NCBI GenBank assembly: GCA_963760795.1 | Contig: CAVXEP010000013.1 | Span: forward strand, 192,001 to 256,000 | Length of the DNA stretch: 64,000 nucleotides | Direction of reading: 5' to 3' | Source of the DNA: an uncultured delta proteobacterium | Lineage (GTDB): Bacteria > Desulfobacterota > Binatia > UBA9968 | In this document: in pieces, positions 4,255 to 62,342 of the stretch | How positions within the stretch are numbered: the stretch's first letter is position 1 | Layout of the letters: every line of letters starts with the position of its first letter | Notes under the pieces: model-generated | Seen by the model: the letters and a program-made list of their open reading frames with translations, nothing else | Databases searched by the model: none | Told to the model about the DNA's origin: nothing | Made by a program: the position numbers and the translations under genes

Positions 4255-7200
4255 CTAATATCGTTTATGCCAAATCAGTTCGACTCCGCTCGCACCCGTG
4301 GTGCTCGTCGACGAACCGATCTTCCACTCGGGCGCTAGTTGAACCTCCACCGAGGCCTGTTGACCGTGCTCGCCGGCCAACTCCTGATTGACCGTAACGT
4401 AGGTGCGGCGGCCGAGATAACGGCCCACGCCGACGCGGCCGCCGTCAAAATTAACGTCGCCAACGCCCAAGCTTTCCAGACCGATGGCGTCCGCGATGGC
4501 GGCACCGATGTTCGCCGCGGCGAAACCGGTGGTCACATCCAGGGCACTTTGCTTGAGCGAAACTTGCTCGCTGCTGTTAAGATCCTTGGTCGGTTTGCCG
4601 AATACCAAGAGCGCGAGGATATCCGACTGATCCAGGATCGGATCGCTGCGCAGCACCAGCGAGGGTTTTTCAACCGTGCCGCCGACTAGCGCCTCGACCG
4701 TGTATTGCGGCAAACGGTGCTGTGCCAGGATGTCCAGAGCCGGGTCGATCTTGCCGCCGCCAATGAATTGGATATCGCCGCGAACGATATCGAAACGCCG
4801 GCCTTGAAAGGTGGCCCAGCCACGAATGATTTCACTGTTGCCGACGAGTTGCAGAGCCTGGCCGGGCTTTTTCGTCGCGTGAATATTACCTCGAAGCTCC
4901 GCCGATGCGTCGGCATGCCTGACGCGGACGTTACTCGGCATGCGTAGCGTCAGATCCAACGTGAGCGCTTTGAATAGCTCGCTTTCGTCCAGTCCATTAT
5001 TTGAGCCTGTTTTCACCGGCGCGACCCGCTCGCTACCGTCCCGGTTCACCACCACGATCGTCTCGTCGCGTTTAACCGCGGTAGAGCTTTGCTCCAGGAA
5101 AGCGAGATCCGGCCGCAAATCGGCCTCCGTGACGTCGACCTTACCCGTGATCCTTGGCGCCGCCGGTGAGCCGTCGATTTCAACGGCGCCGCCAATCTGC
5201 GCGCGATAGCGCCGGGTATCGATCGCCGGCCAGCGGCGCGCCGCCAGGGACAGTTTGAAATTATCGATTTGATAGTTCTGCAACGTCAGCAGGCCGCTGC
5301 CGCTGAAGGTTCCGTCGTTGGCGCGCGCCGACAGCTTTTGAATGCGGATCACGCGCGCATCGAAGCTGCCCTCGGCGGTAACCGAATCAACCGGCACATT
5401 GAGCAGAGTTGCCCTGAGCTTGCCATCGCTCAGACGAAACGAGCCGCTTAGCGCTGGTGCCGCCGGCCGGCCGCGCGCGGTTAATTCGAGACTGAGCTCG
5501 CCACCCAGGCCGGTGACAGTCTTTGCCGTGTAGGCGTTGAGAAACGCCAAGCTCAGACCGGCGGATTGGACGCGCGCGTCCATGTCACCGGTGATGTCCG
5601 AACGCCATCCGTCCTGCCAACTCAACAACAAAGGTAGCCGGCCGGTGGCCGTGAGCGTGTGCGTAGCATCTTGGCGCACCGTGAGATTTAGATTTGCTTG
5701 TCGTTCTCGATAACTGAGATCGGCGACCAGGCCGGCATAGCTTTGCCCGCCGATTTTCGCATCGGTCAAGTTAATCGTTCCAGTGATCTCCGGCGCCGCC
5801 GCCGTGCCGCTGACCTGGGCGCGTAGCGCCAATAGCCCATTCATCGGCGGTTGCTTGGAAAAGAACGTCGCCAGCCCTTCAAGCGGAAAGCTATCGACGG
5901 TCAGGTTCAACCGCTGAGTCCCGGTCATGGCGAGTTGGCCGTCCAGCGCCGCGGCTTTGGCACCGTTGCGCAAGGTGAGGTTTTGAATATTGAAAGTTTC
6001 GCCGCGTTTGCTGAGCGTCGCCGGCGCTGCCAGCTTCCACATGCCGTCCGGCAAGCTGAAACTGGCCTGGCTCAATGTCGCGACGATATCGGCTTGGCTG
6101 TAATCGACAGCGCTCTGAAGCGTATGAATCCGCCCCGACCCATCCTGTGCCTTAACATCGAAACGGGCTGAGCGTGATGCCGTTCCGAGCTTCGCCGTAG
6201 CGTCGAGCTTTTGTAACTCGACGCCGGCTTGCACCCCCGACAAGCGCGCCGCTATATCGCCGCCGGGAATCGGCTGTTGCGCTGTCCGTGCGAGATTGAA
6301 ATCAATAGCACCGCTCTTTACCGCCAAGTTGTCGTAGCTTAGGTTCGCCACTTTCAGCGCGCCGCGGGATTTCAAATCGGTAAGATTGCCTTGCGCGCTA
6401 CCCGCAAGCGTGAGCGAGCCGCTCCCCGACTTACCGGCAAGCGCGAGCCAAGGCGAGATATTCTCGCTGCGAAGCTCGTAATCGAGCTTTCCTTGCTGCG
6501 CGAGATCCACGCCGATATCGCCTTTTACCGCAAGCGATGAATCGGCCGTGCTGAGCGATCCGCGGGCGATGCGAATTCTGCCACCGGAGAGAGCCGCAAC
6601 CAGCTCACCCTTGCTTAAGTTCACCGAGCCGATGGACGACGGCAGAATTTCCAGATTGGTCTGGCCGCTCAGCTGCGCAAGCGTCAGGCCGGAACCCTTG
6701 ACGGCTCCTTTTAAATTGACCACACCGCCGAGAGATTTTCCTTCCGCGGAAACTTTCGCGATGTCGAGATTTTTAACCGCGAAGTCGAATTCGTAACGCG
6801 GCACTTGGGTTAACGTGACGTTGCCGCGCCATTCGGCGCCGCCGAGCGCGCCTGTGAGATCGCCGCTCAAGAGCGCGGTGCTTTCGTGCAGTTTAGTTTG
6901 CACGCGCAGATCGCCCAACTTCCAACCCTTTACTTCCGCCGCGCGAATATTGAAGTTGCCGGCGCCCGCTAGTTGAGCGAGGTCAACTCCCACTCCCGTA
7001 ACTTCGGCGCTGCCGTCGAGAACTCCGGCGACCCCTTGGTCCGGCGCCAGCCAGGTTCGCGCATCGACACCCGCGAGTTTGATCTTTCCCCGAAAGCGCG
7101 GCGCCGGCGCGGCGGCGTCGATGATAAAATTGCCCGTCGCCTTAGCCCCCGCCAAGCCAATATCCAAGGCAATCGTCAGCGCTTCCAGCTGACCGTTTAC

Positions 7201-8040
7201 GGCGATGGTGCCGGCAAGGCTCTGTTTGACCGGCCAGTCCGGAACCAAGCGGACAAGATCCGCCGCACCGAGCTTGTCGATGGCTAGCTTGGCGGCGATT
7301 TTCGGTTTGGCGAAATCAGCCACGTCGCCGCTTAGTTTCAAACGTGACGCCGCCGATTCAAGCACCAGACTATGAACTTTCACAATCGGCGTCGAGCCGG
7401 CGTCGAGGTATGCGAGCGAACCCTTCAGACCCAACTCCGGTAATGTCTTCGACTGCAAGCGAGCGCTAATTTCCCCTGCGTCAAAAACAACGCCCTTGGG
7501 ATCAGCGGTCAGCCGTCCATCCAGCAAGACGTTGCGCAAGCGATATTCCTTCGGCTCGGTTCCCAATATGCGCAGATCGAGATCGCCCTGGCGCAGCGCC
7601 AAAGACTTGAGCACCACGGCGAATTGCGACTCGCTAGTGTCATCCGAAGACAGCGCTTCGGCGATATTCCATCGCCCCTGTTCGTCGCGCACGATCTGTA
7701 CCGCTGGCTCCGCCGCCTCAGCGCGGTCGATTTGCAATCGGCCGAATAGCAACGGCAACAACGCATAGGAGAGTTTGAGTCGCGCAATCCGCACGATGTC
7801 GGAGTTCTGATATCGCAGTCGGACATCGTGCAGTGTCAGATCGCCCCAAACCGATCCTTCGATCCGTTCCAGCGTGACGGCGCCGCGAATAGAGCTATTG
7901 ATCGCCGCGACGAGCTGCTCGCGAACCAAGCGGCGAAACCCCTCCGTGTTCGAGTAGACGCCGAGACCGATGGCGATCAGCAAAAGCACCAGCCCAATCC
8001 CAAGAGCGATCCAGCGCAAATAACGAAACATCATCTTCAT
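4255..8040 (-). CDS. tamB: TamB / AsmA-like translocation and assembly module protein
   Basis: About 1260 aa, N-terminal TM anchor, glycine-rich beta repeats, DUF490-like C terminus (DILALLVFGK...VGVGRYL); directly downstream of an Omp85 gene; start at ATG 8040. Confidence 0.85.
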   Translation of the reverse strand: MKMMFRYLRWIALGIGLVLLLIAIGLGVYSNTEGFRRLVREQLVAAINSSIRGAVTLERIEGSVWGDLTLHDVRLRYQNSDIVRIARLKLSYALLPLLFGRLQIDRAEAAEPAVQIVRDEQGRWNIAEALSSDDTSESQFAVVLKSLALRQGDLDLRILGTEPKEYRLRNVLLDGRLTADPKGVVFDAGEISARLQSKTLPELGLKGSLAYLDAGSTPIVKVHSLVLESAASRLKLSGDVADFAKPKIAAKLAIDKLGAADLVRLVPDWPVKQSLAGTIAVNGQLEALTIALDIGLAGAKATGNFIIDAAAPAPRFRGKIKLAGVDARTWLAPDQGVAGVLDGSAEVTGVGVDLAQLAGAGNFNIRAAEVKGWKLGDLRVQTKLHESTALLSGDLTGALGGAEWRGNVTLTQVPRYEFDFAVKNLDIAKVSAEGKSLGGVVNLKGAVKGSGLTLAQLSGQTNLEILPSSIGSVNLSKGELVAALSGGRIRIARGSLSTADSSLAVKGDIGVDLAQQGKLDYELRSENISPWLALAGKSGSGSLTLAGSAQGNLTDLKSRGALKVANLSYDNLAVKSGAIDFNLARTAQQPIPGGDIAARLSGVQAGVELQKLDATAKLGTASRSARFDVKAQDGSGRIHTLQSAVDYSQADIVATLSQASFSLPDGMWKLAAPATLSKRGETFNIQNLTLRNGAKAAALDGQLAMTGTQRLNLTVDSFPLEGLATFFSKQPPMNGLLALRAQVSGTAAAPEITGTINLTDAKIGGQSYAGLVADLSYRERQANLNLTVRQDATHTLTATGRLPLLLSWQDGWRSDITGDMDARVQSAGLSLAFLNAYTAKTVTGLGGELSLELTARGRPAAPALSGSFRLSDGKLRATLLNVPVDSVTAEGSFDARVIRIQKLSARANDGTFSGSGLLTLQNYQIDNFKLSLAARRWPAIDTRRYRAQIGGAVEIDGSPAAPRITGKVDVTEADLRPDLAFLEQSSTAVKRDETIVVVNRDGSERVAPVKTGSNNGLDESELFKALTLDLTLRMPSNVRVRHADASAELRGNIHATKKPGQALQLVGNSEIIRGWATFQGRRFDIVRGDIQFIGGGKIDPALDILAQHRLPQYTVEALVGGTVEKPSLVLRSDPILDQSDILALLVFGKPTKDLNSSEQVSLKQSALDVTTGFAAANIGAAIADAIGLESLGVGDVNFDGGRVGVGRYLGRRTYVTVNQELAGEHGQQASVEVQLAPEWKIGSSTSTTGASGVELIWHKRY

Positions 8041-8042
8041 CC

Positions 8043-9884
8043 TTAAAAGAACGCGCCGATGCTGAAATGAATTTGCCAAGCCTGGTCCTTGGGCGGTTTT
8101 TGAAAAGGGAAACCGATATCGAGACGCACCGGCCCCACCGGCGTGGTGTAGCTCAAGCCAAAACCCGCTGCGAACTTCAGATTGGCGATCGGTACATCGA
8201 AGGGCTGTGGCGCTACTTGGCCAAAATCGACGAACAGGGCGCCGCCGAGCTCGCGCCAAATGGGCCGGCGCACTTCTATAGAACCTTCAAGCAAAGTCAA
8301 GCCGCCCAACGGATCGTTGCTTTCGCTGATCGGCCCGAGGCGGCGCCGGCCGTAGCCTCGAACACTTTTCTCGCCGCCGGCATAGAATCGCTCGAACAGG
8401 GGATAACCGTCCTGGGCGCCGATCGCGTCGCCCAAGCCCAATTTCAATCGGCCGGCTAGAATGGTTTCCCAGCCGATCTCGTAATATTTTTTCGCCTCGC
8501 CCGTGATCTTGAAAAATTTATAAGCTCCGCCCCAGATCACACCGGCCTGTTCTAATGTCAACGACAGGATTTCGCCCTTCTTCGGATAAAATGGGTTGTC
8601 GGTGGTGTTCCAGACCAAACCCATGGCCGGTCCCGATACCAGGCCCTCTCGTTTAATATCACCCAGCGCCCGCTCCGTCGCTGCCGCGATATCTTTTAAC
8701 TTATCGTATTCCAACCGGTAGCCGATAAAGCCGCTCAGGGCTGGGGTGAAGTGGTGATCGACGCGCGGCATAAAGCGCGTCATATTGCGCAAGTAGGTTT
8801 CTTCTTCTTCTTGGTCTAGTTTAAAACTCAGCACACCCTTGGTTCGCGGCGTGAAGAAATGCGGCTGCACCAAATCCGCCGCGGCCCCCATGGTGATCGA
8901 AGAGTACTTGGCCTGGAGCGATAACTGCCGCCCGCCGCCCAACCAATTAAGATGACGCCACTGCGCCTGGGCGCGAAACTCCTCTTCGGTGCTATAACCT
9001 ACCGCCATGCGAACTTCCCGATAGGGCTTTTCACTTACTTCCACCTCCATCGGCACCACTGCCGGTTGCCCGGCGGTTTGCTTCGGACCGATGCGCACAC
9101 TGCTGAAGAGCTCGAGGGCAAGCAGCTTGGCCCGCGTCTCGGCGACCTTTTCGGAAGAAAATTTCTCGCCAGCTCCGTAGGTGAGCTCGCGCTGAATCAA
9201 ACTTGGATTGACACTGTCAGCGCCGAGAATATCGGTTGCGCCGAAAATCGTCGGCGGCCCAGGCTTGATCGTATAGCCGATATCGACCTCGCGCTCATCG
9301 ATGCGGATTTCGGCTTTGCGCGAACTTTCAACATGGGCGAACCCTTGGCGCGAAAACAGGCTGCGCAGTGCTAGTTCCGCCCCTTGGTACGCGGCTTCTG
9401 CAAACACCTCGCCACGCTTGACCGGCAAGGAGTCCGGCAAGGGCGGTCTCTCGGCTGGCGGCAGGTCGCTGATCACCGCTACATCGATCTGGGAGATGAC
9501 GACGGGTAAGGTTTCCTTGATGCGAATCTCTACGGTGACGCGAGTCGTGTCTTCGTCGACTAAAAGATCATGCTCGATAACCGTGTCGTAATAACCACGC
9601 GCCTCGTAATAACGCCGTAGCCGCTCAAGATCGTGTTCGAAAGTTGCCGGTTCGAAGGAGGGACGCTCACCCCAGAATCGGTACCAAGGCCGTTCCTTGG
9701 TCAAGATTTCGTCGCGCATTTCACCCTCTGTGAAAAGCTTCAAGCCCGACAGATTGATTTTTTCGACGCGCCAATCTTTGGACACGTCGAGAGCATCGAC
9801 CGTAACCGAATAAGCCGGATTCGCGTAGATCAGACCGCCTGCTATAAGAAATACGATTGCAGAAAATGTTTTCACGCCTATCAT
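8043..9884 (-). CDS. tamA: Omp85/BamA-TamA family outer membrane protein
   Basis: 613 aa, POTRA-like N region, FYAGGEKSVRGY motif, TPVGPVRLD, C-terminal IHFSIGAFF. Confidence 0.85.
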   Translation of the reverse strand: MIGVKTFSAIVFLIAGGLIYANPAYSVTVDALDVSKDWRVEKINLSGLKLFTEGEMRDEILTKERPWYRFWGERPSFEPATFEHDLERLRRYYEARGYYDTVIEHDLLVDEDTTRVTVEIRIKETLPVVISQIDVAVISDLPPAERPPLPDSLPVKRGEVFAEAAYQGAELALRSLFSRQGFAHVESSRKAEIRIDEREVDIGYTIKPGPPTIFGATDILGADSVNPSLIQRELTYGAGEKFSSEKVAETRAKLLALELFSSVRIGPKQTAGQPAVVPMEVEVSEKPYREVRMAVGYSTEEEFRAQAQWRHLNWLGGGRQLSLQAKYSSITMGAAADLVQPHFFTPRTKGVLSFKLDQEEEETYLRNMTRFMPRVDHHFTPALSGFIGYRLEYDKLKDIAAATERALGDIKREGLVSGPAMGLVWNTTDNPFYPKKGEILSLTLEQAGVIWGGAYKFFKITGEAKKYYEIGWETILAGRLKLGLGDAIGAQDGYPLFERFYAGGEKSVRGYGRRRLGPISESNDPLGGLTLLEGSIEVRRPIWRELGGALFVDFGQVAPQPFDVPIANLKFAAGFGLSYTTPVGPVRLDIGFPFQKPPKDQAWQIHFSIGAFF

Positions 9885-39987: not shown

Positions 39988-41110
39988 CTACGAGTCGCTC
40001 GGCCACAGCGTCATGCCCTCGGGCTTGAGTTCGAGATAAACCCGGTCGCCCGACTTGAGATCGTACGACTCCGGCGAAACCAAGACCCGGGTATCCGCGC
40101 CCAGAGTGACGGTGTACTCGTAACGGTCGCCGAGGAACTGCACGGTTTGCAGCGTCGCCTCGACCATGTTGACGCGGCCATCCTGCCGGCTGCCGGTCAA
40201 ATTGACCTTCTCCGGACGGATCGCCACGGTCACGCCTTGGCCGATGGCCAACGATCCGTTCACCGAGCCAATCACTTTAGTGCGCGGTAAATTCAGCAAC
40301 GCCGAGCTGAAGCCCTGGACTTCGACACTGACCGATTGGTCCGTGGATGCGCTGATCTTGCCGGGTAGCAGGAACGTCTTGCCGAGGAAGTCGCGGACGA
40401 ACGGCGTCGCCGGGCGGAAATAGACTTCTTCCGGCGTGCCGACCTGTTCGAGCACGCCGAATTTCATGATCGCGATACGATCGGACAGGCTCAGCGCTTC
40501 GATCTGATCATGGGTGACGAAGATCACGGTGATATTTACGCGCTGTTGCAACGACTTTAACTCGCGGCGCATCTCTTCGCGCAGCTGGGCGTCGAGATTG
40601 CTCAGCGGCTCGTCGAGGAGCAACACTTTCGGGCGAGAAGACCAAGGCCCGCGCCAAGGCGACGCGCTGCTGTTGGCCGCCGCTGAGCGCCGGCGCCGGC
40701 CGTTCGCCCAAACCGGCGAGCCCAACCAATGCCAGCACGTCCTCGACTTTTTTACTTGCCTGGGCGCCTTTGATGCCGCGCAATTTCAGCGGATAGGCGA
40801 CGTTTTCGAAAACCGTCATATGCGGCCACAGGGCATAGGACTGAAACACCATGCCCATGTTGCGCTTTTCCGGTTTGATGAAAAGATTTTTATCCGGCGC
40901 CACCAGACACTGGTCGCCGAGATGAATCTCGCCGCCATCCGGTTTTTCCAGACCGCCGACCATGCGCAAGGTCGTCGTCTTGCCGCAACCGGAGGAGCCC
41001 AGCATAGTGAAAAACTCGCCCTCGGCGATGTCTAAATTAATCCGATTGACGGCGGCGACCTGGCCGAATGTCTTATAGAGATTTTGAATGCGTAAGAAAC
41101 TCACTGGCAC
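39988..41110 (-). CDS. ABC transporter ATP-binding protein (PotA/FbpC-like), one apparent frameshift near 40632
   Basis: GSSGCGKTT and LSGGQQQR in ORF 40508..41110; KVLLLDEPLSNLD and a TOBE tail in ORF 39988..40725; one extra base in a short C run separates the frames. Confidence 0.85.
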
Positions 41111-49678: not shown

Positions 49679-50662
49679 TCACTTGATTACTCTGTCTGCT
49701 CTGACCAGCACATTCGGCGGGATCGTCAGGCCGATCTGCTTGGCGGCTTTCAAATTGATGATGAACTCGAACTTGGTCGGCTGCTCTACTGGAAGGTCTG
49801 CAGGTGTTCTACCTTTCAAAATCTTGTCGACATACGTAGCGGCGCGCCGGTCCAGGTCCCTGTTGTCCACGCCGTAGGTCATGAGCCCGCCGGCCTCCAC
49901 GATTGCTGGTGAGATGTACATCACCGGGAGTCGGTGCATTACCGCGAGTGCAAAAATCTGTGTGCGGTGAGCATTGGCGATAGGGCCCGCCGCCATCATA
50001 AGGGCTGCCTCAGCCGATCCCTTGCTCGCAGCGCGGAATGCGGTCTCAATATTCTTGGGGTCTAGAACGTCTAGGTATTGAAGCTTCACTTTCAACGTCC
50101 CTGCCGCGAGTTCCACCTCTCTTAACACTTGTGCGTGGTCTGGTCTGGTCGAAGTTCCAAAGACCGCCACGCGGGAGAGCCTGGGAATGGTCTCCTTCAA
50201 CAGCTCCAGTCGTTTTCCGCTTAGCTCGGGGGCAAGTGTGGACAACCCGGTGATGTTCCCACCAGGCCGCGCAAGGCTGGCGATGAATCCTGTTGCGACT
50301 GGATCAGGATCGTTCGTCATGACTATGGGAATCGTTGTCGTCGCTTCCTTTGCGGCACGCGTTGGTAATGGACCAGCCGTGACGATGATGTCTACCTTGA
50401 GACGCACAAGCTCGGCCGCAAGCGCGGGGAGGCGATCGAGTTTCCCTTCCGCATATCGCAACTCAATGACAATGTTTTTCCCCTCGACGTAACCAAGGTC
50501 GCGCAGACCTTGGCGAAAGGCCTCGATGCGGGCCGATTCAGCGGAAGGGGAGGAACCACGTAGGTTTCCTATCCGCGGGAGTTTCGTTGGCTGCGCCTGG
50601 GTAGGGAAGCAGGGAGCAAAGAGCAGGGAGCAAAGAGCAAGGAGAATGATTTTCTTACTCAT
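49679..50662 (-). CDS. ABC_sub_bind-family substrate-binding protein (intact)
   Basis: MSKKIILLALCSLLFAPCFP signal, LGYVEGKNI, SLARPGGNITG, DLPVEQPTKFEFIINLK. Confidence 0.9.
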   Translation of the reverse strand: MSKKIILLALCSLLFAPCFPTQAQPTKLPRIGNLRGSSPSAESARIEAFRQGLRDLGYVEGKNIVIELRYAEGKLDRLPALAAELVRLKVDIIVTAGPLPTRAAKEATTTIPIVMTNDPDPVATGFIASLARPGGNITGLSTLAPELSGKRLELLKETIPRLSRVAVFGTSTRPDHAQVLREVELAAGTLKVKLQYLDVLDPKNIETAFRAASKGSAEAALMMAAGPIANAHRTQIFALAVMHRLPVMYISPAIVEAGGLMTYGVDNRDLDRRAATYVDKILKGRTPADLPVEQPTKFEFIINLKAAKQIGLTIPPNVLVRADRVIK

Positions 50663-50712
50663 TGCTTTCCGTCCTGCTTTTCTGATGTCTGACGTCTGAC
50701 TTCTGACCGCTG

Positions 50713-51712
50713 TCATTTGATTATCCTAGTCGCTCGCGCCAGCACCTCCGGTGGAATCGTCACGCCGATCTGCTTCGCCGTCTTGAGATTGATCACGAAC
50801 TCGAACTTCATCGGCTGCTCCACCGGCAGATCGGCAGGCTTGGCTCCCTTCAGGATTCTGTCCACGTAATATGCGACGCGCCGGTAGCTGTCCGCGAGGT
50901 CCGCCCCGTAGGACATGAGCCCACCGGCATCTACAGCTTCTCTGTTGCTGTACATCGACGGTAACCGGCTCTTTAACGCAAAGCCCGCGATCCGTTTTCG
51001 GTTAGCACTCATTAGCGGGCCCGCGGTGAGCACGTAGAGTCCATCCGGGCGCTGCTTGTTTAGCGCAGCGAATACCTTCTCGAAATCGTCCGCAGCTCGT
51101 ACCTCCCAAGGCTGAATAGTCAACTTCAGCGCACGCGCCGCGGCTGGGAGAACCTCTTTCACCTCGAGTACACTGGCCGGAGTCGGCCGGATCGTAGAGA
51201 ACCGCGACACGGGCAAGTTTGGGAACGGCTTCTTTGAGCAGCTCCAGCCGCTTCCCGCCTAGTTCTCTGGTAAGGAGTGTAAGGCCGGTGACGTTGCCGC
51301 CGGGACGGGCAAGGCTTTCAACCAGGCCTGCCTCGACAGGATCGGACCCACCGCCCACCATAACGATGGGAATCGTCTTGGTCGCATTCTTGGCCGCCCG
51401 GATCCACGGGTCCCCTCCTGCTACCACGATGATATCAACCTTGAGACGCACCAGCTCCGCCGCAAGCTCAGGGGCCCGATCGCGCTTCCCCTCCGCATAT
51501 CGGTACTCGATGGCGATGTTCTGTCCTTCTATGTAGCCACGCTCGCGCAGAGCCAGCCGAATTGCCTCGGCACGGGCGGACTCAGTAGCTGGATCGGAAT
51601 TCGATAGATACCCTATCCGCGGGACTTTCTTCGGCTGCTGTCCCTGAGCGATCGCTCCACCAGCAAGCAGCATGGCAACGACCAGGATTGATCTGAAAGA
51701 AACTATCCTCAT
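50713..51712 (-). pseudogene. ABC_sub_bind-family substrate-binding protein, frameshift near 51180
   Basis: N half in ORF 51002..51796 (ATG 51712, GAGGTG RBS), C half in ORF 50713..51216. Confidence 0.8.
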
Positions 51713-52134
51713 TGCGCACCTCGTGCTGGAAGCTATCACGCATGCGGCACTTGCGAAAAGTGTTATTTGCGTCAGATACGGAACCAGGTCCGTCACTTTC
51801 TCCGTATGGAATCCGGCGCTTGGTCACACGGTGCCGGCATAGGCACCATCGGAAGAGGCGCGCCGAGGCCTCAGCGCTACTTATTTTCCTACAGCTCCCA
51901 CGTGGTAGGATTTCCGCATGTGCGGCCGATTTCGTGCGCCGCAAACCGAACATCGCCCTTGCTAACTATTCACCAGTCGAATCCTACTCCGCGAAACAGG
52001 TTAGATTTCATCGTTGACGCCACTAACTGCCTGAAGTACAAGTCAGCGGAGCCGCATGGAGTTGTTTCTGCGGTGTAAGCGAACCTGTCTTATGTGTAGT
52101 TTGTTCCCACGACAAATATCCCCGTTTTGAGGCG

Positions 52135-55100
52135 ATGCTTCTAATGGCACCCACGAGAAAAAAGGGTTCAAAGAGTACCAAGGCAAAACCGCTCCGTCCC
52201 GCGAGGCAAACGTTGGTGGCTAAACAAGCGCAGACGATCGCTGAGCTATGCCAGGAACTCGCTCAATCTGTGCAGCGGGAAAATGAGGCTCTGGAGCATC
52301 AGACGGCAACCGCCGAGGTGCTCAGCATCATCAGCCGCTCGCCCACGGACGTGCAGCCGGTGCTCGACGCCATCGTCGAGAGCGCGGCTAAGGTTTGTGG
52401 AATCGATGACGTGGTTCTGCGACTGCGCGAGCGCGACACGATGGCGGTGCGGGCTCATTTCGGCCCCATACCGACTGGGCGCACCTGAGATCAGCGTCGA
52501 TGACGCCACAGTTTCGCTGGATTCGCGAGCATGGCACACTCCACGTTCCCGACGCCAGAGCACCGAACGATTTTCCAGTAGGTGACTTCCGGCCTCTTTC
52601 GTTCGCTCGTTGGCTGTTCCCCTTCGTCAGCAGGGAGAATTTATTGGAGTCACTGAACGCACGTCGTACCGAGGTGCGCCCCTTCACCCCGGCGCAGATC
52701 AAGCTGCTCGAAACTTTCGCCGACCAGGCGGTGATCGCCATCGAGAACGTGCGGCTGTTTCAAGAACTCACTGAAGCGTTGGAACAGCAGACAGCGACGA
52801 GTGAAATCTTGGGCGTCATCGCTAGCTCGCCGACGGATATTCAGCCGGTATTGGATACGGTGGTTGAAAATGCTGTGCGGCTGGCCGGCGCTGAGAAAGG
52901 TCACATTTATCAATATGATGGAGAATTTCTTCGCGTCGTTGCGCAGTTTCAACGAGACCGTTGAAGAAATCGCAGTTATGCGTGACCAACCCATCCGCCC
53001 GTAACCTGGGAGTTTGAACAGTCGAGCGTTCCTCGAGGGACAACATTTCCAACGTCTTGACGCACAAGCGGACGCCAATTATGACGGCCCTGGCCGGCCG
53101 GCCGGTGCACGCTCCGCCCTGGCGGTTCCCCTGCTTCGCGAAGGAACAGCGATCGGAACCATTACAATCTGGCGTGATGTTGTGGAAGCATTTTCTGAGA
53201 GGCAAATTGAGCTGGTCAAAACCTTTGCCGCCCAAGCGGTGATCGCCATCGAGAATGTGCGCTTGTTCAAGGAACTCGGCGAGCGCAACGCGGAACTGCG
53301 CGAGGCGCTGGAGCATCAGACGGCGACGGCCGAGGTGCTCGGCATCATCAGCCGCTCGCCCACCGACGTGCAGCCGGTGCTCGACGCCATCGTCGAGAGC
53401 GCCGCGCGGGTTTGTGGGATCGATGACGTGGTGCTGCGACTCCGCGAGGGGAACAGTCTGGTTCCACGGGCTCATTTTGGTCCCATACCCATCGCCCGCG
53501 TCGAGATCAGTATTGATGAGCCACGATTTTCGCTGGATGCGCGAGCATGGCACGCTCCACATTCCCGACGTCCGCGAGCAGAACGACTTTCCAACGTTGG
53601 GTTCCACCGGCGGCTGGCGCACCTTCTTAGCCGTTCCCCTTCGTCAGCAGGGGGAACTCATTGGAGCACTGAACGCACGTCGCACCGAGGTACGCCCCTT
53701 CACCCCGGCGCAGATCAAACTGCTCGAAACCTTCGCCGACCAGGCGGTGATCGCCATCGAGAACGTGCGGCTGTTTCAAGAACTCAAGGAATCGTTGGAA
53801 CAGCAAACCGCGACGAGCGAGATCTTGGGCGTGATCGCCAGCTCGCCGACGGATATTCAGCCGGTGCTGGACGCCGTTGCCGAAAACGCTGCGCGGCTAT
53901 GCGAGGCAACCGATGCGCAGATCACGCGTGTCGACGGCGATGTCCTCCGTATCGTGGCTTCACATGGCTCGATCGCCGTGCCATCAAGTGCACGAGCGGA
54001 AGGTATCCCGATTCGCCGTGACATCGTTGCGGTCGAGCGGTCCTCGACCGTCGAACTGTTCACGTTGAAGACTCTGGCAGCCGAAATAGATGGCGAGTTC
54101 GCTGGAGCTAAGTATCTTCAGCAGATCACGGGCCAGCGTGCGACGCTTTCGACACCCTTGCTCCGCGAGGGTGTTGCCATAGGCGCGATCGTGATTCGAC
54201 GCATGGAGGTCCGGCCTTTCTCGGAAAAACAGATCAAGCTGCTCGAAACCTTCGCTGCACAAGCGGTGATCGCCATCGAGAACGTGCGCTTGTTCAAGGA
54301 ACTGCGGAGCGCAATGCGGAATTGCGCGAGGCGCTGGAGCATCAGACGGCGACGGCCGAGGTGCTCGGCATCATCAGCCGCTCGCCGACGGACGTGCAGC
54401 CGGTGCTCGACGCCATCGTCGAGAGCGCGGCGCGGGTTTGCGGGATCGATGACGTGGTGCTGCGACTCCGCGAGGGCGACGCTATGGTTGCACGGGCTCA
54501 TTTTGGCCCCATACCGATCGCGCGCATCGAGATCAGTATTGATGAGCCAGCAGTTTCGCTGGATGCGCGAGCATGGCACGCTCCACATTCCCGACGTCCG
54601 CGCCCAGAACGATTTCCCAACGTTAGGTTCCGTCGGCGCTGGCGCACCTTCTTGGCCGCTCCCCTTCGTCAGCAGGGGGAACTCATTGGAGGACTGATCG
54701 CACGTCGCACCGAGGTGCGCCCCTTCACCCCGGCGCAGATCAAACTGCTCGAAACCTTCGCCGACCAGGCGGTGATCGCCATCGAGAACGTGCGGCTGTT
54801 CAAGAACTCACGGAGGCGCTTGGAGCAGCAGACGGCGACGAGTGAGATCTTGGGCGTCATCGCCAGCTCGCCGACGGATATTCAGCCGGTGCTGGACGCG
54901 GTTGCCGAGAGCGCCGCCGCGTCTGTGCGACGCAAACGATGCGCAATTTGGCGTCGTTGACGGAGACATGTGCTTCGGCTGGCGCCTCACATGGATCGAT
55001 GCCTCTCGTCGCGGCCGAGAAGGTCGCCGATTGACTCGCGCTATCGGTGCGCGGTCCGAGCGATGCTCGACCGGCAGACGATTCACATTCCAGACATCTG

Positions 55101-58100
55101 CAGCCCGGACGCGCAAGACGAGATTTCCGGACAGCTCAGGTTCATTGCCAGGCGATCGGCTGTCCGAACCGTGCTTGGCGACGCCGCTGCTTCGCGAAGG
55201 TACGGCGATCGGGGTGATTCATGATCCGCCGAACGGAAGTCCGGCCGTTCACCGACAAGCAGATCGCGCTGCTCAAGACCTTCGCCGACCAAGCGGTGAT
55301 CGCCATCGAGAACGTGCGGCTGTTCAAGGAACTGCAGGAGCGCAACGCGGAATTGCGCGAGGCGCTGGAGCATCAGACGGCGACGGCCGAGGTGCTCGGC
55401 ATCATCAGCCGCTCGCCGACCGACGTGCAGCCGGTGCTCGACGCCATCGTCGAGAGCGCCGCCAGGGTTTGTGGGATCGAATACCTGACACTGCGACTCC
55501 GCGAGGGGAACGTGCTGATTCCGCGGGCTCATTTTGGTTCCATGCCCACCGCCCGCGCCGAGATCAGTGTTGATGAACCACGGTGTCGCTGGATGCGCGA
55601 GCACGGGACGCTTCACGTTCCCGATATCGCGCGCGCAGAACGATTTCACAAGGGCGGGTTACCGACAGCAACTCGAATCGCACCTTTTTGGCCGTTCCCC
55701 TTCGTCAGCAAGGGGAACTCATTGGAACACTGACTGCGCGTCGCACCGAGGTGCGCCCCTTCACCCCGGCGCAGATCAAGCTGCTCGAAACCTTCGCCGA
55801 CCAGGCCGTGATCGCCATCGAGAACGTGCGGCTGTTCAAGTTGCAAGAACTCAACCGGAGCTCAGCTTGGAGCAGCAGACGGCGACGAGTGAAATCCTGG
55901 GTGTGATCGCCAGTTCGCCGACGGACATTCAACCGGTGCTGGATACGCATCGCCGAAAGCGCGTGCGCGTGTGTGCGGCGCGACCGATGCGTCACGATTC
56001 GCCTGCTCGATGGCGAGATGTTCTTCGGGTCGTCGCCCACTATGGCGAGACTGCCGAAGCAAGTACGCCTGGCTGCAGAGCCGACCGGGACGTGTTGGAT
56101 TGCCGACTTCAGGCAATCGCGCATTCAGCGAGCGACAAGCCATCCACGATTGCCGATGCTGCAGGCAGAGCGAGATTCCCGAGCAGTCATTGCCGCACGG
56201 CATGGAGTCGAGACCATGCTTGTCAACGCCGCTGCTGCGCGAGGGCACGGCCATCGGGGTGATCAACATTCGTCGCGACGGAAGTGAAGCCTTTCACCGA
56301 CAAGCAGATCGCGCTTGCTGGAAACCTTCGCCGCCCAAGCGGTGATCGCCATCGAGAACGTGCGGCTGTTCAAGGAACTCGGCGAGCGCAACGCGGAATT
56401 GCGCGAGGCGCTGGAGCATCAGACGGCGACGGCCGAGGTGCTCGGCATCATCAGCCGCTCGCCGACGGACGTGCAGCCGGTGCTCGACGCCATCGTCGAG
56501 AGCGCCGCGCGGGTTTGCGGGATCGATGACGTGGTGCTGCGGCTCCGCGAGGGGAACGCTATGGTTTCGCGGGCTCATTTTGGTCCCATACCCATCAGCC
56601 GCGTCGAGATCAGTATTGATGAGCCACAGTATCGCTGGATGCGCGAGCATGGCACGCTCCACATTCCCGACGTCCGCGCGCAGAACGATTTCCCAACGTT
56701 GGGTTCCGTCAGCCAGTTGTCGCACCTTCTTGGCCGTTCCCCTTCGTCAGCAGGGGGAACTCATTGGAACACTGAACGCACGTCGCACCGAGGTGCGTCC
56801 CTTCACCCCGGCGCAGATCAAACTGCTCGAAACCTTCGCCGACCAGGCGGTCATCGCCATCGAGAACGTGCGGCTGTTTCAAGAACTGCAAGAACGCAAT
56901 CGCGAATCACCGAGCTCTGGAGCAGCAGACGGCGACGAGTGAAATTCTGGGCGTCATCGCCAGCTCGCCGACCGACATTCAGCCGGTGTTGGATGTTGTT
57001 GCGGAGAACGCAGCGCGGCTATGTGACGCGACCGATGCCAACATTTACCGTATTGACGGCGACTGGTTATCGGCTCGTGGCCTCATACGGAGCTATGCCT
57101 ATCCCCGACCGCGATAAACCGAGACCTCTCATTCGGGGTCATGCTCCAGCCAGAGCTATGATCGATCGAGCGGTCGTACACGTCGATGACATGTTGAGCC
57201 TGGAGGCTCAGGCCGAATTTCCTGAAGGCTGGGCTTTCACCCAGGCCGTCGGTCTACGTACTATGCTTAGTCGCACCGTTGCTGCGCGAGGGGGTCGCAA
57301 TCGGTGCGATCTTGATTCGCCGCACGGAAGTTCGCCCATTCATCGGACAAGCAGATTGCGCTTCTCAAAACCTTCGCCGACCAAGCGGTGATCGCCATCG
57401 AGAACGTGCGGCTGTTCCAAGAGCTCAAGGAATCACTGGAGCAGCAGACGGCGACGAGTGAGATTTTGGGTGTCATCGCTAGCTCGCCGACGGACATCCA
57501 ACCCGTGTTGGATGCAGTTGCGGCGAGCGCGGCGAGGCTGTGCGATGCCACGGATGCCACAGTCATTCGGCTCGACGGCGATGTTATGCATCAGGTGGCG
57601 GTCCATGGGTCGATGCCTGTCCCTGGGTCTCGACGAATAACCCACGGCACGCCCGTGGGCCGAGCTCTTATCGATCGAAGCACCATTCATATTCATGACC
57701 TCGTGGCGGAACTCGAAGCCGAATATCCGGAATCGAGGGATCGGCAGGGGCCGATCGGTACGCGCACGATGCTCATCACGCCGATGCTGCGCGAGGGAGC
57801 GCCGATCGGGGCTATCGTCATTCGCCGCATGGAGGTCCGCCCCTTCACGGAGAAGCAGATCAAACTGCTCGAAACTTTTGCCGCTCAGGCCGTCATCGCC
57901 ATCGAGAACGTGCGGTTGTTTCAAGAACTGCAAGAGCGAACCCAAGAGCTGATTAGGTCAGTGGGAGAGCTGAAAGCACTCGGCGAAGTCGGTCAGGCGG
58001 TTAGCTCGACTTTGGATTTCGAAACCGTGCTGACGCGCATCGTTTCCCATGCGGTCCAATTGAGCGGCACCGACGGCGGGGCGATTTACGAATACGACGA

Positions 58101-59203
58101 GCCGTCTGAAGAGTTCCTGCTGCGCGCCACCGATCATATGGAGGAAGAACTGATAACCGCTTTGCGGGCGAATCCCCCGCGTCTTGGCGACGGGTTAGTG
58201 GGGCGCGCGGCATTGGAGCCGGGAGCCGATTCAGATTCCCGATATTTCGCAATCTAGCGCCTACGCGCCGCGCATGCGCCAGATACTCGAACGCTTCGGT
58301 TTTCGTGCCAGCCTGGCCGTTCCCTTGTTACGTGAAGATCGCATCATCGGCGGCTTGGTAGTGCGACGAAAATCGATCGGCGAGTTTCGCCCCGAAGTCA
58401 TCGAGCTTTTGAAAACCTTCGCGACCCAGTCGGTGTTGGCGATCCAAAACGCCCGGCTGTTTCGCGAGATCGAGGAAAAGAGCCAGCAGATCGAAGCCGC
58501 CAACCGCCACAAGTCTGAGTTTCTCGCCAACATGTCGCATGAGCTGCGCACGCCGCTCAACGCCATCATCGGCTTCTCCGAAGTCCTGCAGGAAAGACTG
58601 TTTGGCGAGTTAAATGAAAAACAAGCCGAATACACTGACGACATCCTTACTTCCGGTCGCCATCTGCTGTCCCTCATCAATGAGATTCTCGATCTGTCCA
58701 AAGTCGAAGCCGGGCGCATGGAGCTGGAGACTGCTACGTTCGATCTGCCGTTGGCCATAGACAACGCCCGCACCTTCGTGCGCGAGCGGGCGACAAATCA
58801 TGGGATTACTCTAAATGTCAAAGTTGACGAGCGGCTCGGCGACATCGTCGGCGACGAACGCAAGATCAAGCAGATACTTCTGAATCTCTTATCCAACGCC
58901 GTCAAGTTCACGCCCGAGGGCGGACGGATAACAATTAACGCCAGACCGATTAACGGCGCAGTCGAGATTTCAGTAACCGACACCGGCATCGGCATCGCCG
59001 AAGAGGACCAGCCAAAAGTCTTCGAAGAGTTTCGTCAGGTGGGCAGCGACAACGCGAAAAAGGTCGAAGGCACCGGACTGGGCTTAACGTTGGCGAAGAA
59101 GTTTGTCGAGCTGCACGGTGGAAGGATTTGGGTCGAGAGCGAAGTGGGCAAAGGTTCCACTTTCGTGTTTACCCTGCCGACTGCCATGGCCGCACAGAGT
59201 TAG
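52135..59203 (+). CDS. Giant cytoplasmic sensor histidine kinase: 12 tandem GAF domains + HisKA + HATPase (many apparent frameshifts)
   Basis: Repeated LEH/QQTAT.E.LG.I..SPTD.QPVLD ... [17 protein letters not shown] modules; H box [18 protein letters not shown] box [11 protein letters not shown] boxes DTGIGI and GTGLGL; no TM segment. Confidence 0.85.
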
Positions 59204-60609: not shown

Positions 60610-61602
60610 GTGACCCCCGTGCACAAAAAAATCACCATATTGGTTCTCTGCGCTCTGCTCCTTGCTCCCTGTTTCCCCGCCCAAGCACAGCAGCCAACGA
60701 AAATCCCGCGGATAGGATTTCTAGCTGCTAACTCCCTTTCCTCCCTCTCGGCCCGCATTGAGGCATTCCGGCAAGGTCTGCGCGCACTTGGGTATGTGGA
60801 GGGGAAAAACATTGTCATTGAGTATCGATATGCAGAGGGAAATGCCGAGCGTCTCCCCGCGCTGGCGACCGAATTAGTGCAGCTAAATGTCGACATCATC
60901 GTCACGGCTGGCTCGGCATCGACCCGTCCCGCCAAGGAAGTAACTCGAATTATTCCCATTGTCATGGCGGCGGATAGCGATCCTGTTGGGACCGGTTTCG
61001 TCGTCAGTCTTGCGAGACCTGGGGGAAATATTACTGGATTGTCCAACCTCGCCCCGGAGATCAGCGGGAAACGACTGGAGCTTCTAAAAGAAACCGTTTC
61101 TAAACTCTCCCGCGTAGGCGTCTTCGGACAGTCGAGCACACCCGGTACCGCGCCAGCGTTGAGAGAGACGGAACTCGCTGCGGCGGCACTCAAGGTGCAA
61201 CTTCAATTCCTAGAGGTACGAGATCCCAAAGATATTGAGAATGCATTCCGAAGCGCAAGCAAGTGGCGCGCGGGGGGAGTCATCCTCTTGTCGAACCCGG
61301 TCTTCACTTCTCAGGGAAAACTACTTGCAGACCTCGCGGTAAAGAGCCGGCTGCCGGCTATATCTCAAATTAGTGAATTTGTGGATGACGGAGGGCTGAT
61401 GAGCTATGGCGTGAGCGTTGTCGACTTATACCGGCGTGCCGCCACTTATGTGGACAAGATTTTGAAAGGCCGAAAGCCCGTAGACCTTCCCGTGGAGCAG
61501 CCGATCAAGTTCGAGTTCATCATCAGCCTGAAGGCAGCGAAGCAGATCGGCCTGACGATTCCTCCCAATGTGTTGGTGCGGGCGGATCGGGTTATCAAAT
61601 GA
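60610..61602 (+). CDS. ABC_sub_bind-family substrate-binding protein (intact)
   Basis: Signal LVLCALLLAPCFP, PRIGFL, SLARPGGNITG, GGLMSYG, DLPVEQP. Confidence 0.9.
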   Translation: MTPVHKKITILVLCALLLAPCFPAQAQQPTKIPRIGFLAANSLSSLSARIEAFRQGLRALGYVEGKNIVIEYRYAEGNAERLPALATELVQLNVDIIVTAGSASTRPAKEVTRIIPIVMAADSDPVGTGFVVSLARPGGNITGLSNLAPEISGKRLELLKETVSKLSRVGVFGQSSTPGTAPALRETELAAAALKVQLQFLEVRDPKDIENAFRSASKWRAGGVILLSNPVFTSQGKLLADLAVKSRLPAISQISEFVDDGGLMSYGVSVVDLYRRAATYVDKILKGRKPVDLPVEQPIKFEFIISLKAAKQIGLTIPPNVLVRADRVIK

Positions 61603-61748
61603 CCCCGTCTTCAAAGCAGGAGTCCGCGACGATTTCCGGTAAGCATCAGGCGCCATCCCCCCGCTGAATGTGCTGACGGTAGAGGGTAATTTGATTAACA
61701 ATCCAAGACGCATAGGGCGAAAAGCAAAGGGTAAGATACGGAAGAAAT

Positions 61749-62342
61749 ATGAGAAACAACATGGTGCGTCTCACGCTTGTCGCTCTGCTCTTCGCGCTTA
61801 GCTTTTCCGCCGACGCCCAGCAGCCGGCGGGAACTCCCCGGATAGGAACCCTGGCCGCGGCCTCCGCGACCCCGGATCTAGGTGGCAAACGGTTGGAACT
61901 GCTCAAGGAAGTCTTCCCTAATCTTGACCGGGTGGCTTTCCTCTGGGAACCGGGTACTCCGAGAGGAAACGAGCCCCTCACAGATATGGAGGCTGCGGCC
62001 AAGGCGTTACGACTCACACTTATATCGATCGAGGTGCGAAGTGTTGGCGATTTTGAGGACGCATTTGCGCGAGTGAGAAAGGAACGCGCCCAGGCGCTCA
62101 TTATGAACCCAGGTCCACTTTTCAATACTCAGCAACGCCAAATCTTGGACTTCGCGGCAAAGAACCGGTTGCTGGCGATGTACCCAACCAGTGAATTTGT
62201 TGAGGCCGGCGGCTTGATGAGCTACGCGCCGATCGAGCAGCCGATAAAGTTTGAGTTCATCGTCAATCTGAAAGCGGCGAAGCAGATCGGCCTGACGGTT
62301 CCCTCGAATGTGCTGGCGCGGGCGGATAGGGTGATCAAATAA
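61749..62342 (+). CDS. Internally deleted ABC_sub_bind protein (two in-frame deletions)
   Basis: 197 aa; relative to 60610..61602 it lacks about 104 aa after PRIG.L and about 26 aa after GGLMSY; signal peptide and C terminus intact. Confidence 0.75.
   Translation: MRNNMVRLTLVALLFALSFSADAQQPAGTPRIGTLAAASATPDLGGKRLELLKEVFPNLDRVAFLWEPGTPRGNEPLTDMEAAAKALRLTLISIEVRSVGDFEDAFARVRKERAQALIMNPGPLFNTQQRQILDFAAKNRLLAMYPTSEFVEAGGLMSYAPIEQPIKFEFIVNLKAAKQIGLTVPSNVLARADRVIK

Follow-up and report, generated by a model that had tools for sequence, protein, structure and literature searches.

Two questions are raised by a multi-GAF sensor histidine kinase locus of an uncultured bacterium of the class Binatia, which lies at positions 52135 to 59203 of the 64,000-nt stretch of DNA analysed here (the window, contig C13:192001-256000; all positions below are given in window numbering, in which the array lies on the + strand): does it encode a single protein, and are its sensing modules being shuffled? 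A preliminary description of the sequence had presented it as one sensor kinase in which constant and variable GAF modules alternate, and had proposed that near-identical junctions between the modules could serve as recombination handles, by which ligand-sensing cores are added, deleted or swapped. We consider it likely that the locus is the gene of a soluble sensor histidine kinase in which a short basic leader and twelve GAF domains precede a canonical HisKA/HATPase_c core, that the breaks in its reading frame are assembly errors, and that its modules have been exchanged in the course of evolution.

The twelve GAF modules that had been described are all recovered. A family-specific hidden Markov model (HMM) of 178 positions, which was built from 109 modules of intact relatives and scanned over three frames, matches each of the twelve modules completely, and the module ends listed below are those it places. 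The modules are arranged in the order A1 b1 A2 b2 A3 b3 A4 b4 A5 b5 b6 C, followed by HisKA and HATPase_c. QTAT anchors are found at 52300, 52788, 53317, 53804, 54343, 54829, 55374, 55876, 56420, 56926 and 57445, about 15 nt after each of the first eleven module starts in the preliminary description, and are absent from module C. The distance from one A module to the next is 1017 to 1046 nt, in agreement with the A-b period of about 1.03 kb noted before. The features of the gene are the following, with frame breaks given for the module in which they occur:

52135..59203, + strand: complete gene of the multi-GAF sensor histidine kinase; its read-through translation, in which every break is marked by an X, has 2377 amino acids, which as assembled are spread over three frames
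52135..52236, + strand: basic N-terminal leader, with ATG at 52135
52237..52760, + strand: GAF module A1, the most divergent A copy; five one-base insertions
52761..53268, + strand: GAF module b1, with a unique core; one insertion (52947) and the sole in-frame stop (53002)
53269..53776, + strand: GAF module A2; two frame events, net +1 near 53524-53532
53777..54295, + strand: GAF module b2; two events, -1/+1, at 54029 and 54073, which compensate each other
54296..54801, + strand: GAF module A3; three shifts, at 54305, 54559 and 54638
54802..55325, + strand: GAF module b3; five insertions, plus a compensating pair in the linker
55326..55837, + strand: GAF module A4; two insertions
55838..56371, + strand: GAF module b4; nine frame events, the densest module
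56372..56879, + strand: GAF module A5; one insertion (56693); shares 96% identity with A copies located on C29 and C7, two other contigs
56880..57417, + strand: GAF module b5; four insertions; 89% identical to a module of the array on contig C7 (5466-6002)
57418..57921, + strand: GAF module b6; frame intact, no events; structure modelled
57922..58462, + strand: terminal GAF module C, a distinct type that is kinase-adjacent in relatives; one extra G at 58216
58511..58714, + strand: HisKA (DHp) domain with H-box; no frame events in the kinase
58850..59182, + strand: HATPase_c catalytic domain, matched by PF02518

The constant/variable pattern is due to two GAF subfamilies, a conserved A type and a b type, which keeps the first and last helices and has a diversified core. 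The A modules had been described as highly similar in DNA over their full length; identity is 92-94% among A2, A3 and A5, and relative to the other A copies it is 87-89% for A4 and 77-82% for A1. Identity among b modules is 57-68%, and module C shares 44-48% with every other module. In 13 b-A-b stretches of this genome, the identity profile remains at 0.84-1.00 across A, whereas b modules show 0.82-0.91 over the first 110 nt or so, 0.43-0.68 in the core and 0.76-0.91 over the last 60 to 90 nt. Shared flanks and differing cores of the b modules, as reported before, are thus borne out; the junction motif, however, is common to A and b modules alike and is not a property of b modules only. Tandem Repeats Finder reported no repeat here, its longest period being 500 nt, whereas this array has divergent cores and a unit of about 510 or 1030 nt, and a promoter and terminator scan gave counts that were not above those of shuffled sequence.

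The domain assignments are supported by profile and structure comparisons. Matches to the Pfam families GAF, GAF_2 or GAF_3 are present in 9 of 11 open pieces of the array. The kinase that had been placed after the array is confirmed by matches to PF00512 (HisKA, E value 3.5e-24), with the H-box motif SHELRTP in the frame-1 translation, and to PF02518 (HATPase_c, E value 7.8e-35, profile positions 1-109 of 111). When the kinase core of 246 amino acids was compared with HK853, residues 7-243 were aligned, including the DHp region (E value 2.7e-46). Two further statements of the preliminary description also stand: the read-through translation contains no 19-residue window above 1.6 on the Kyte-Doolittle scale and hence no predicted transmembrane segment, and no match to the Response_reg profile is found within the window.

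The structural model of the intact module b6 has a mean predicted local distance difference test score (pLDDT) of 87.5 and shows a GAF fold in which residues 2-22 and 145-167 form helices. A fold search with this model gave 475 PDB matches at E<=0.001, the best 50 of which are all GAF-domain structures; the top matches have template modelling (TM) scores of 0.76-0.81 at a sequence identity of 10-22%, and a phmmer search with b6 against PDB sequences yielded nothing at E<=0.001. The two terminal helices of the model coincide exactly with the conserved junction sequences. What had been described as near-identical 'junctions' are thus the helices at the N- and C-terminus of every GAF domain.

The single sensor kinase protein of the preliminary description, however, cannot be read from the deposited sequence, which lacks one continuous coding frame, a point that had been overlooked. 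The region from 52135 to 59203 consists of about ten overlapping pieces in three frames, the longest open stretch of which covers 484 amino acids from stop to stop; elsewhere in the window, long intact open reading frames (ORFs) of 1334, 1122 and 970 amino acids are present. In a three-frame translation, recognisable GAF sequence hops between the frames. Frameshift-aware alignment of every module with its nearest intact relative revealed 35 frameshifts (27 '+1', five '-1' and three '+2') and one in-frame stop; visual inspection added another compensating pair, located in the A3/b3 linker. As a control, no events were called in the arrays of two intact relatives (11 modules in 5670 nt and 15 modules in 7734 nt). 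The length of the A module is divisible by three in 24 of 24 intact A-type modules from relatives, versus none of the five in the window. The indels are private to single module copies; module C, for instance, carries its extra base at three different sites in the window, in the paralog on contig C7 and in the closest ortholog (relative G013). Contigs of relatives from other soil samples have the frame-restoring state at 52608/9, 53524-31, 54030 and 51182-4, the last of which lies in a neighbouring gene, and the closest orthologs, at about 75-85% DNA identity, are too distant for a base-by-base placement of the indels. Free of these breaks, the gene would most likely be a single ORF of about 2340 amino acids.

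We read the roughly 35 breaks as single-base errors, mostly insertions, of an error-prone metagenome assembly, probably a long-read metagenome bin, because the same insertion-biased defect affects ordinary genes and all five large multi-GAF arrays of this genome. As a background sample, 400 kb of relative G014 provided 138 non-overlapping ORFs of at least 350 amino acids, 58 of which were matched at >=60% identity in the genome studied here (29,754 aligned amino acids). Ten of these 58 orthologous genes are frame-broken, with 14 frame changes between high-scoring segment pairs, and frameshift-aware alignment of the ten genes gave 16 '+1' and two '-1' shifts as well as two stops, a spectrum biased towards insertions just like that of the array. 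The broken genes include those for a class II ribonucleotide reductase, SecD, QueA, a family-B DNA polymerase and a molybdopterin oxidoreductase, the 2.4-kb gene of which contains five clustered insertions; examples of broken housekeeping genes are located at C22:303185-305946, C19:141271-142960 and C19:138695-139733. Genes such as these cannot be lost by a free-living bacterium with a genome of 6.6 Mb. The genome consists of 35 contigs, which would suit a long-read metagenome bin, and has an estimated completeness of 88.9%, a value that is probably lowered by the frame breaks. All five large multi-GAF arrays are broken, with 121 '+1', 36 '-1' and 35 '+2' shifts and six stops in about 29 kb; arrays are also broken in the few-contig genomes G013, G018 and G017, and are intact in G014 and in short-read bins. 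A consensus derived from mixed or mis-registered reads would fit the pattern of breaks, and apparent frameshifts from collapsed alleles as well as long-read errors that fragment genes are the topics of PMC8445201 and PMC12007338. Homopolymer slippage was considered as the type of error, but the inserted bases at the inspected sites are not mainly homopolymer extensions. An alternative genetic code or programmed frameshifting was rejected: shifts occur in both directions and at non-homologous sites, and housekeeping genes are hit too.

The anatomy of the locus is real and non-random, and its architecture is typical for the genus. All 18 genomes that were sampled from the genus (a tally that includes G004) contain matches to the kinase end, and 13 of 20 fetched loci hold intact ORFs of 1004 to 3057 amino acids with 4 to 16 detected module ends. 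Sequence similar to the leader also precedes the orthologs of relatives G013 (72% identity), G014 and G018. In G014, the otherwise intact ortholog (contig C2) has its leader match at 5088-5231 and a long open frame from 5447, and its 5' end may be shifted or truncated. A database search, which covered proteins of 586 to 2000 amino acids, gave at least 8000 matches at E<=1e-60; the homologs are named 'GAF domain-containing protein', and those for which a source is given, several entries at 74-83% identity, bear the label 'Candidatus Binatia bacterium'. A near-identical intact copy of the gene was not found in this search, the best match having 93% identity. Most arrays contain A-type modules, as a rule in alternation with b modules: among 157 cases in 120 intact homologs, the module after A is of type b in 142 and of type C in 13. 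Three of the other large arrays, on C15, C29 and C7, and a smaller kinase on C23 have one or two receiver-domain matches directly downstream (C15:163468-164360, C29:505135-506129, C7:1161-1499 and C23:35212-36083); the window's array and the array C7:129948-134554 have no receiver-domain match nearby. The summed word depth in four soil metagenomes reaches thousands over the conserved parts of the modules and over 51000-51633, which is part of an ABC_sub_bind gene, and is about 10 in the unique flanks; depths in the thousands imply that these stretches are common to many soil organisms. A full-text literature search, with supplementary files outside its reach, returned no paper containing both 'Binatota' and 'GAF domain'.

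Both the number and the order of modules vary among close relatives. The span from the N-terminus to the kinase, about 7.07 kb in this array, measures 6.6 kb in G013 and 6.5 kb in G018 but 5.0 kb in G014, and 66 distinct orders of A, b and C modules are found among the 120 intact homologs. Similar b modules often stand in dissimilar surroundings: for the 98 pairs of b modules in different proteins with at least 90% amino acid identity, the next b module is comparably similar in 7 of the 22 cases open to the comparison and the previous one in 10 of 37, and for pairs with 80-90% identity the corresponding figures are 42 of 231 and 29 of 244. Where both non-A flanks of a triplet are at least 80% identical, the b module in the middle falls below 70% in 9 of 16 triplets. 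In the comparison with the closest ortholog, that of G013, the kinase is 97.9% identical in amino acids, and kinase and module C share 86-94% of their DNA sequence, but positionally matching b cores only 44-56%. These sequence patterns point to arrays that gain, lose and exchange whole modules over evolutionary time by homologous recombination in the conserved helices.

The A modules have followed a different course. The genome contains 16 of them, 13 of which, distributed across all five arrays, form a tight cluster with 94% identity. Third-position divergence (p3) among these 13 modules is 0.10 (78 pairs), with no difference between the 13 pairs that lie in one array and the 65 pairs from different arrays, whereas it amounts to 0.35-0.51 within seven other genomes and to 0.32 between this genome and others. 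Copies within the genome are thus more alike than copies in related genomes, synonymous sites included, as is characteristic of concerted evolution. In line with this, amino acid identity between A modules of the same protein is at most 85.2% in 66 pairs from the 120 homologs and up to 93.3% here, and codon identity in the junctions, calculated for positions with the same amino acid, is 0.65-0.77 here versus 0.45-0.60 elsewhere. Gene conversion, which is limited to sufficiently similar sequence, can explain the pattern and has probably homogenised the 13 A modules and the junctions across the five arrays of this genome; frame errors make codon-based conversion tests unsafe. Duplication of whole units as the source of A homogeneity was rejected, the intervening b cores being old and unique.

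In intact relatives, the b flanks have a codon identity of 0.44-0.57 at positions with the same amino acid, and in seven other genomes the synonymous likeness of the junctions is equal within a locus and between genomes (0.50 vs 0.49 and 0.51 vs 0.51; 251 vs 2690 module pairs). Because likeness within loci equals likeness between genomes, the DNA of the junctions is conserved there through constraint on the linker helices, and a role of the junctions as specialised recombination handles is not supported in relatives. Of the recombination that had been proposed, the evolutionary gain, loss and exchange of modules is retained, but junction identity reflects helix constraint. As to the proposed swapping of ligand-sensing cores with paralogs, there is no sign of a recent event, because 41 of 42 b cores are without a counterpart above 82% in the genome (terminal C-type modules, for which three arrays show 85-89% identity to each other, are left out of this count). 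The sole exception is b5, which is 89% identical to its counterpart in the C7 array; in the identity profiles, the value falls to about 50% in both neighbouring modules, dropping exactly at the junctions. Near-identical cores common to donor and acceptor loci, as expected for programmed cassette shuffling, were not found beyond this one pair, and nothing shows a programmed or rapid shuffling device.

Several points weigh against our reading of the locus as an intact gene with assembly errors and an evolutionary history of module exchange. Breaks occur about once per 110-200 nt in the arrays versus about once per 5 kb in ordinary genes, a difference of about 25-fold. Their density in the unique b cores equals that in the repeated parts (nine in b4 and none in b6), so that simple mis-mapping of repeats fails as an explanation, and the error process cannot be named, given that homopolymer extensions do not account for most insertions. 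Reads of the source sample were not found, the best sequencing run containing 25% of the sampled words, which means that the errors are deduced and not seen; four soil runs yielded only short contigs from many organisms (up to 665 nt among the pieces listed). In addition, the same poor assembly could, through its consensus, have created part of the likeness among the A modules, and much of the mosaic evidence comes from contigs of (short-read) metagenomes, which are possibly chimeric at the conserved junctions.

The array could instead be an assembly chimera or partly collapsed, with modules misjoined or blended, so that order, number, high A-A identity and indels would all be artefacts. The A modules are 94-97% identical across the five arrays, the assembly is demonstrably error-prone with errors concentrated in all five, and cross-recruitment of reads is plausible in view of the word depths in soil metagenomes. 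We nevertheless hold this explanation to be unlikely, since each A copy has differences of its own (4-7%) and the b cores between the A copies are unique in the genome, which would anchor multi-kb reads; moreover, independent genomes, some with intact ORFs, also show arrays of comparable length with A-b alternation and a terminal C module, and the contig continues for tens of kb with ordinary genes on either side of the gene. It is very improbable that the frameshifts are real and that all five arrays are decaying pseudogenes of this lineage. The breaks are indeed part of the deposited sequence, one of them being the in-frame stop at 53002, and the closest ortholog in G013 is frame-broken too, but it is broken at other sites; 35 frameshifts, nearly all of one base and mostly insertions, stand against a single stop, essential genes throughout the genome show the same spectrum, and the segments between the breaks still match intact homologs strongly.

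A further candidate is active cassette shuffling, in which the five arrays often exchange modules via the conserved helices, many module orders coexist in the population and the error clusters in b3 and b4 are the footprint of variant reads with other cores. It would account for the uneven distribution of frame events, from zero to nine per module of about 520 nt, and would be in keeping with A modules and junctions that are homogenised across loci in this genome only, with the single-module tract common to two arrays and with the mosaic contexts of modules across homologs. The near-complete lack of counterparts for the b cores, however, means that recent swaps are rare, and clustered insertions are also found in ordinary single-copy genes such as that of the molybdopterin oxidoreductase; we judge frequent exchange to be improbable. 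Joints in the soil contigs were not counted as evidence of shuffling, because the 15 among the joints listed have sides of at most 41 nt and come from other samples. The more far-reaching idea that all five multi-GAF kinase genes recombine with one another as a single pool, in which whole sensing modules move between genes via A modules and linker helices, often enough to be polymorphic in the population, leaving the error clusters in the b cores as a trace, appears just as doubtful to us.

The genes around the array include further cases of split frames. Four paralogous ABC_sub_bind genes flank the kinase gene, at 49679-51796 (- strand) and 60610-62342 (+ strand). The ABC substrate-binding gene at 50713..51796 (- strand) is distributed over two frames, split at profile positions 142/145, and contigs from four soil runs omit one base at 51182-51184, within the overlap of its two frames; the ABC_sub_bind gene at 61749-62342 covers profile positions 119-230 only and may also be broken. 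An ABC transporter ATPase gene at 39988-41110 (- strand) likewise lies in two overlapping frames, with ABC_tran positions 2-127 in one and TOBE_2 in the other. Both genes of a pair at 4255-9884 (- strand), a TamB-like gene (1334 amino acids) adjoining an Omp85/POTRA TamA-like gene (613 amino acids), are intact.

Parts of the predicted protein resemble well-known systems. The HisKA-type kinase HK853 of Thermotoga maritima (PDB 2c2a, 3dge) possesses a DHp and HATPase_c core like that of the window's kinase; the latter, however, has twelve cytoplasmic GAF domains before the core, no predicted transmembrane segment and no adjacent response regulator. The top fold match of b6 is a cyanobacteriochrome-type dual sensor histidine kinase (PDB 6oap; TM score 0.80 over the query), in which GAF sensor domains also feed a histidine kinase through helices, but identity is 17-18%, and such photosensory multi-GAF kinases have few GAF domains and lack the constant/variable alternation. 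The tandem GAF-A/GAF-B proteins PDE2/5/6/10 and CyaB2 (1mc0, 3ibj, 1ykd), which are among the fold matches of b6, share with it the GAF fold and long linking terminal helices; they differ in an identity of only 10-22%, in an array with six times fewer modules and in their output, which is a phosphodiesterase or cyclase instead of a kinase.

On the evolutionary side, gene conversion is a described cause of concerted evolution in repeat proteins, among them the assembly-line polyketide synthases. As in the polyketide synthases, a conserved module type is near-identical within the genome, also at synonymous sites, and the intervening parts diverge; the protein class is a different one, however, and the homogenised copies here sit in five separate genes. 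Programmed cassette recombination systems are represented by pilE/pilS and vlsE. With these, the array shares variable cores between conserved flanks that could support homologous exchange, but each array here has its own start and kinase, silent donor loci are absent and b cores are not shared between loci.

In the paired GAF domains of phosphodiesterases and CyaB cyclases, one domain binds a ligand and the other dimerises. By analogy with these GAF-A/GAF-B pairs, the A-type modules of the array may serve in dimerisation or transmission, and the diversified cores of the b modules may bind different small molecules. The C-terminal helix of one GAF domain and the N-terminal helix of the next would join successive domains, and the joined helices would probably form a long helical spine, which ends in the DHp helices of the dimeric kinase and carries conformational signals. 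A kinase built in this way would integrate several cytoplasmic inputs. The concept of a conserved 'signalling helix' comes from PMC1592074.

For this genome, gene calls, pseudogene counts and completeness estimates are unreliable, because indels occur at about 1 per 5 kb in ordinary genes and 1 per 110-200 nt in the arrays, and whoever reads raw sequence may easily 'see' a protein for which the sequence as deposited has no code. The family itself, which comprises thousands of soluble kinases with 5 to 16 GAF domains, diversified ones alternating with a conserved type, deserves attention. If the five arrays did form a recombining pool, cytoplasmic sensor kinases would have a natural combinatorial system by which their inputs are re-wired. 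Should the b cores bind different ligands, many cytoplasmic signals would be integrated on one helical spine, and the mosaic evolution of the arrays would show how such sensors acquire their inputs.

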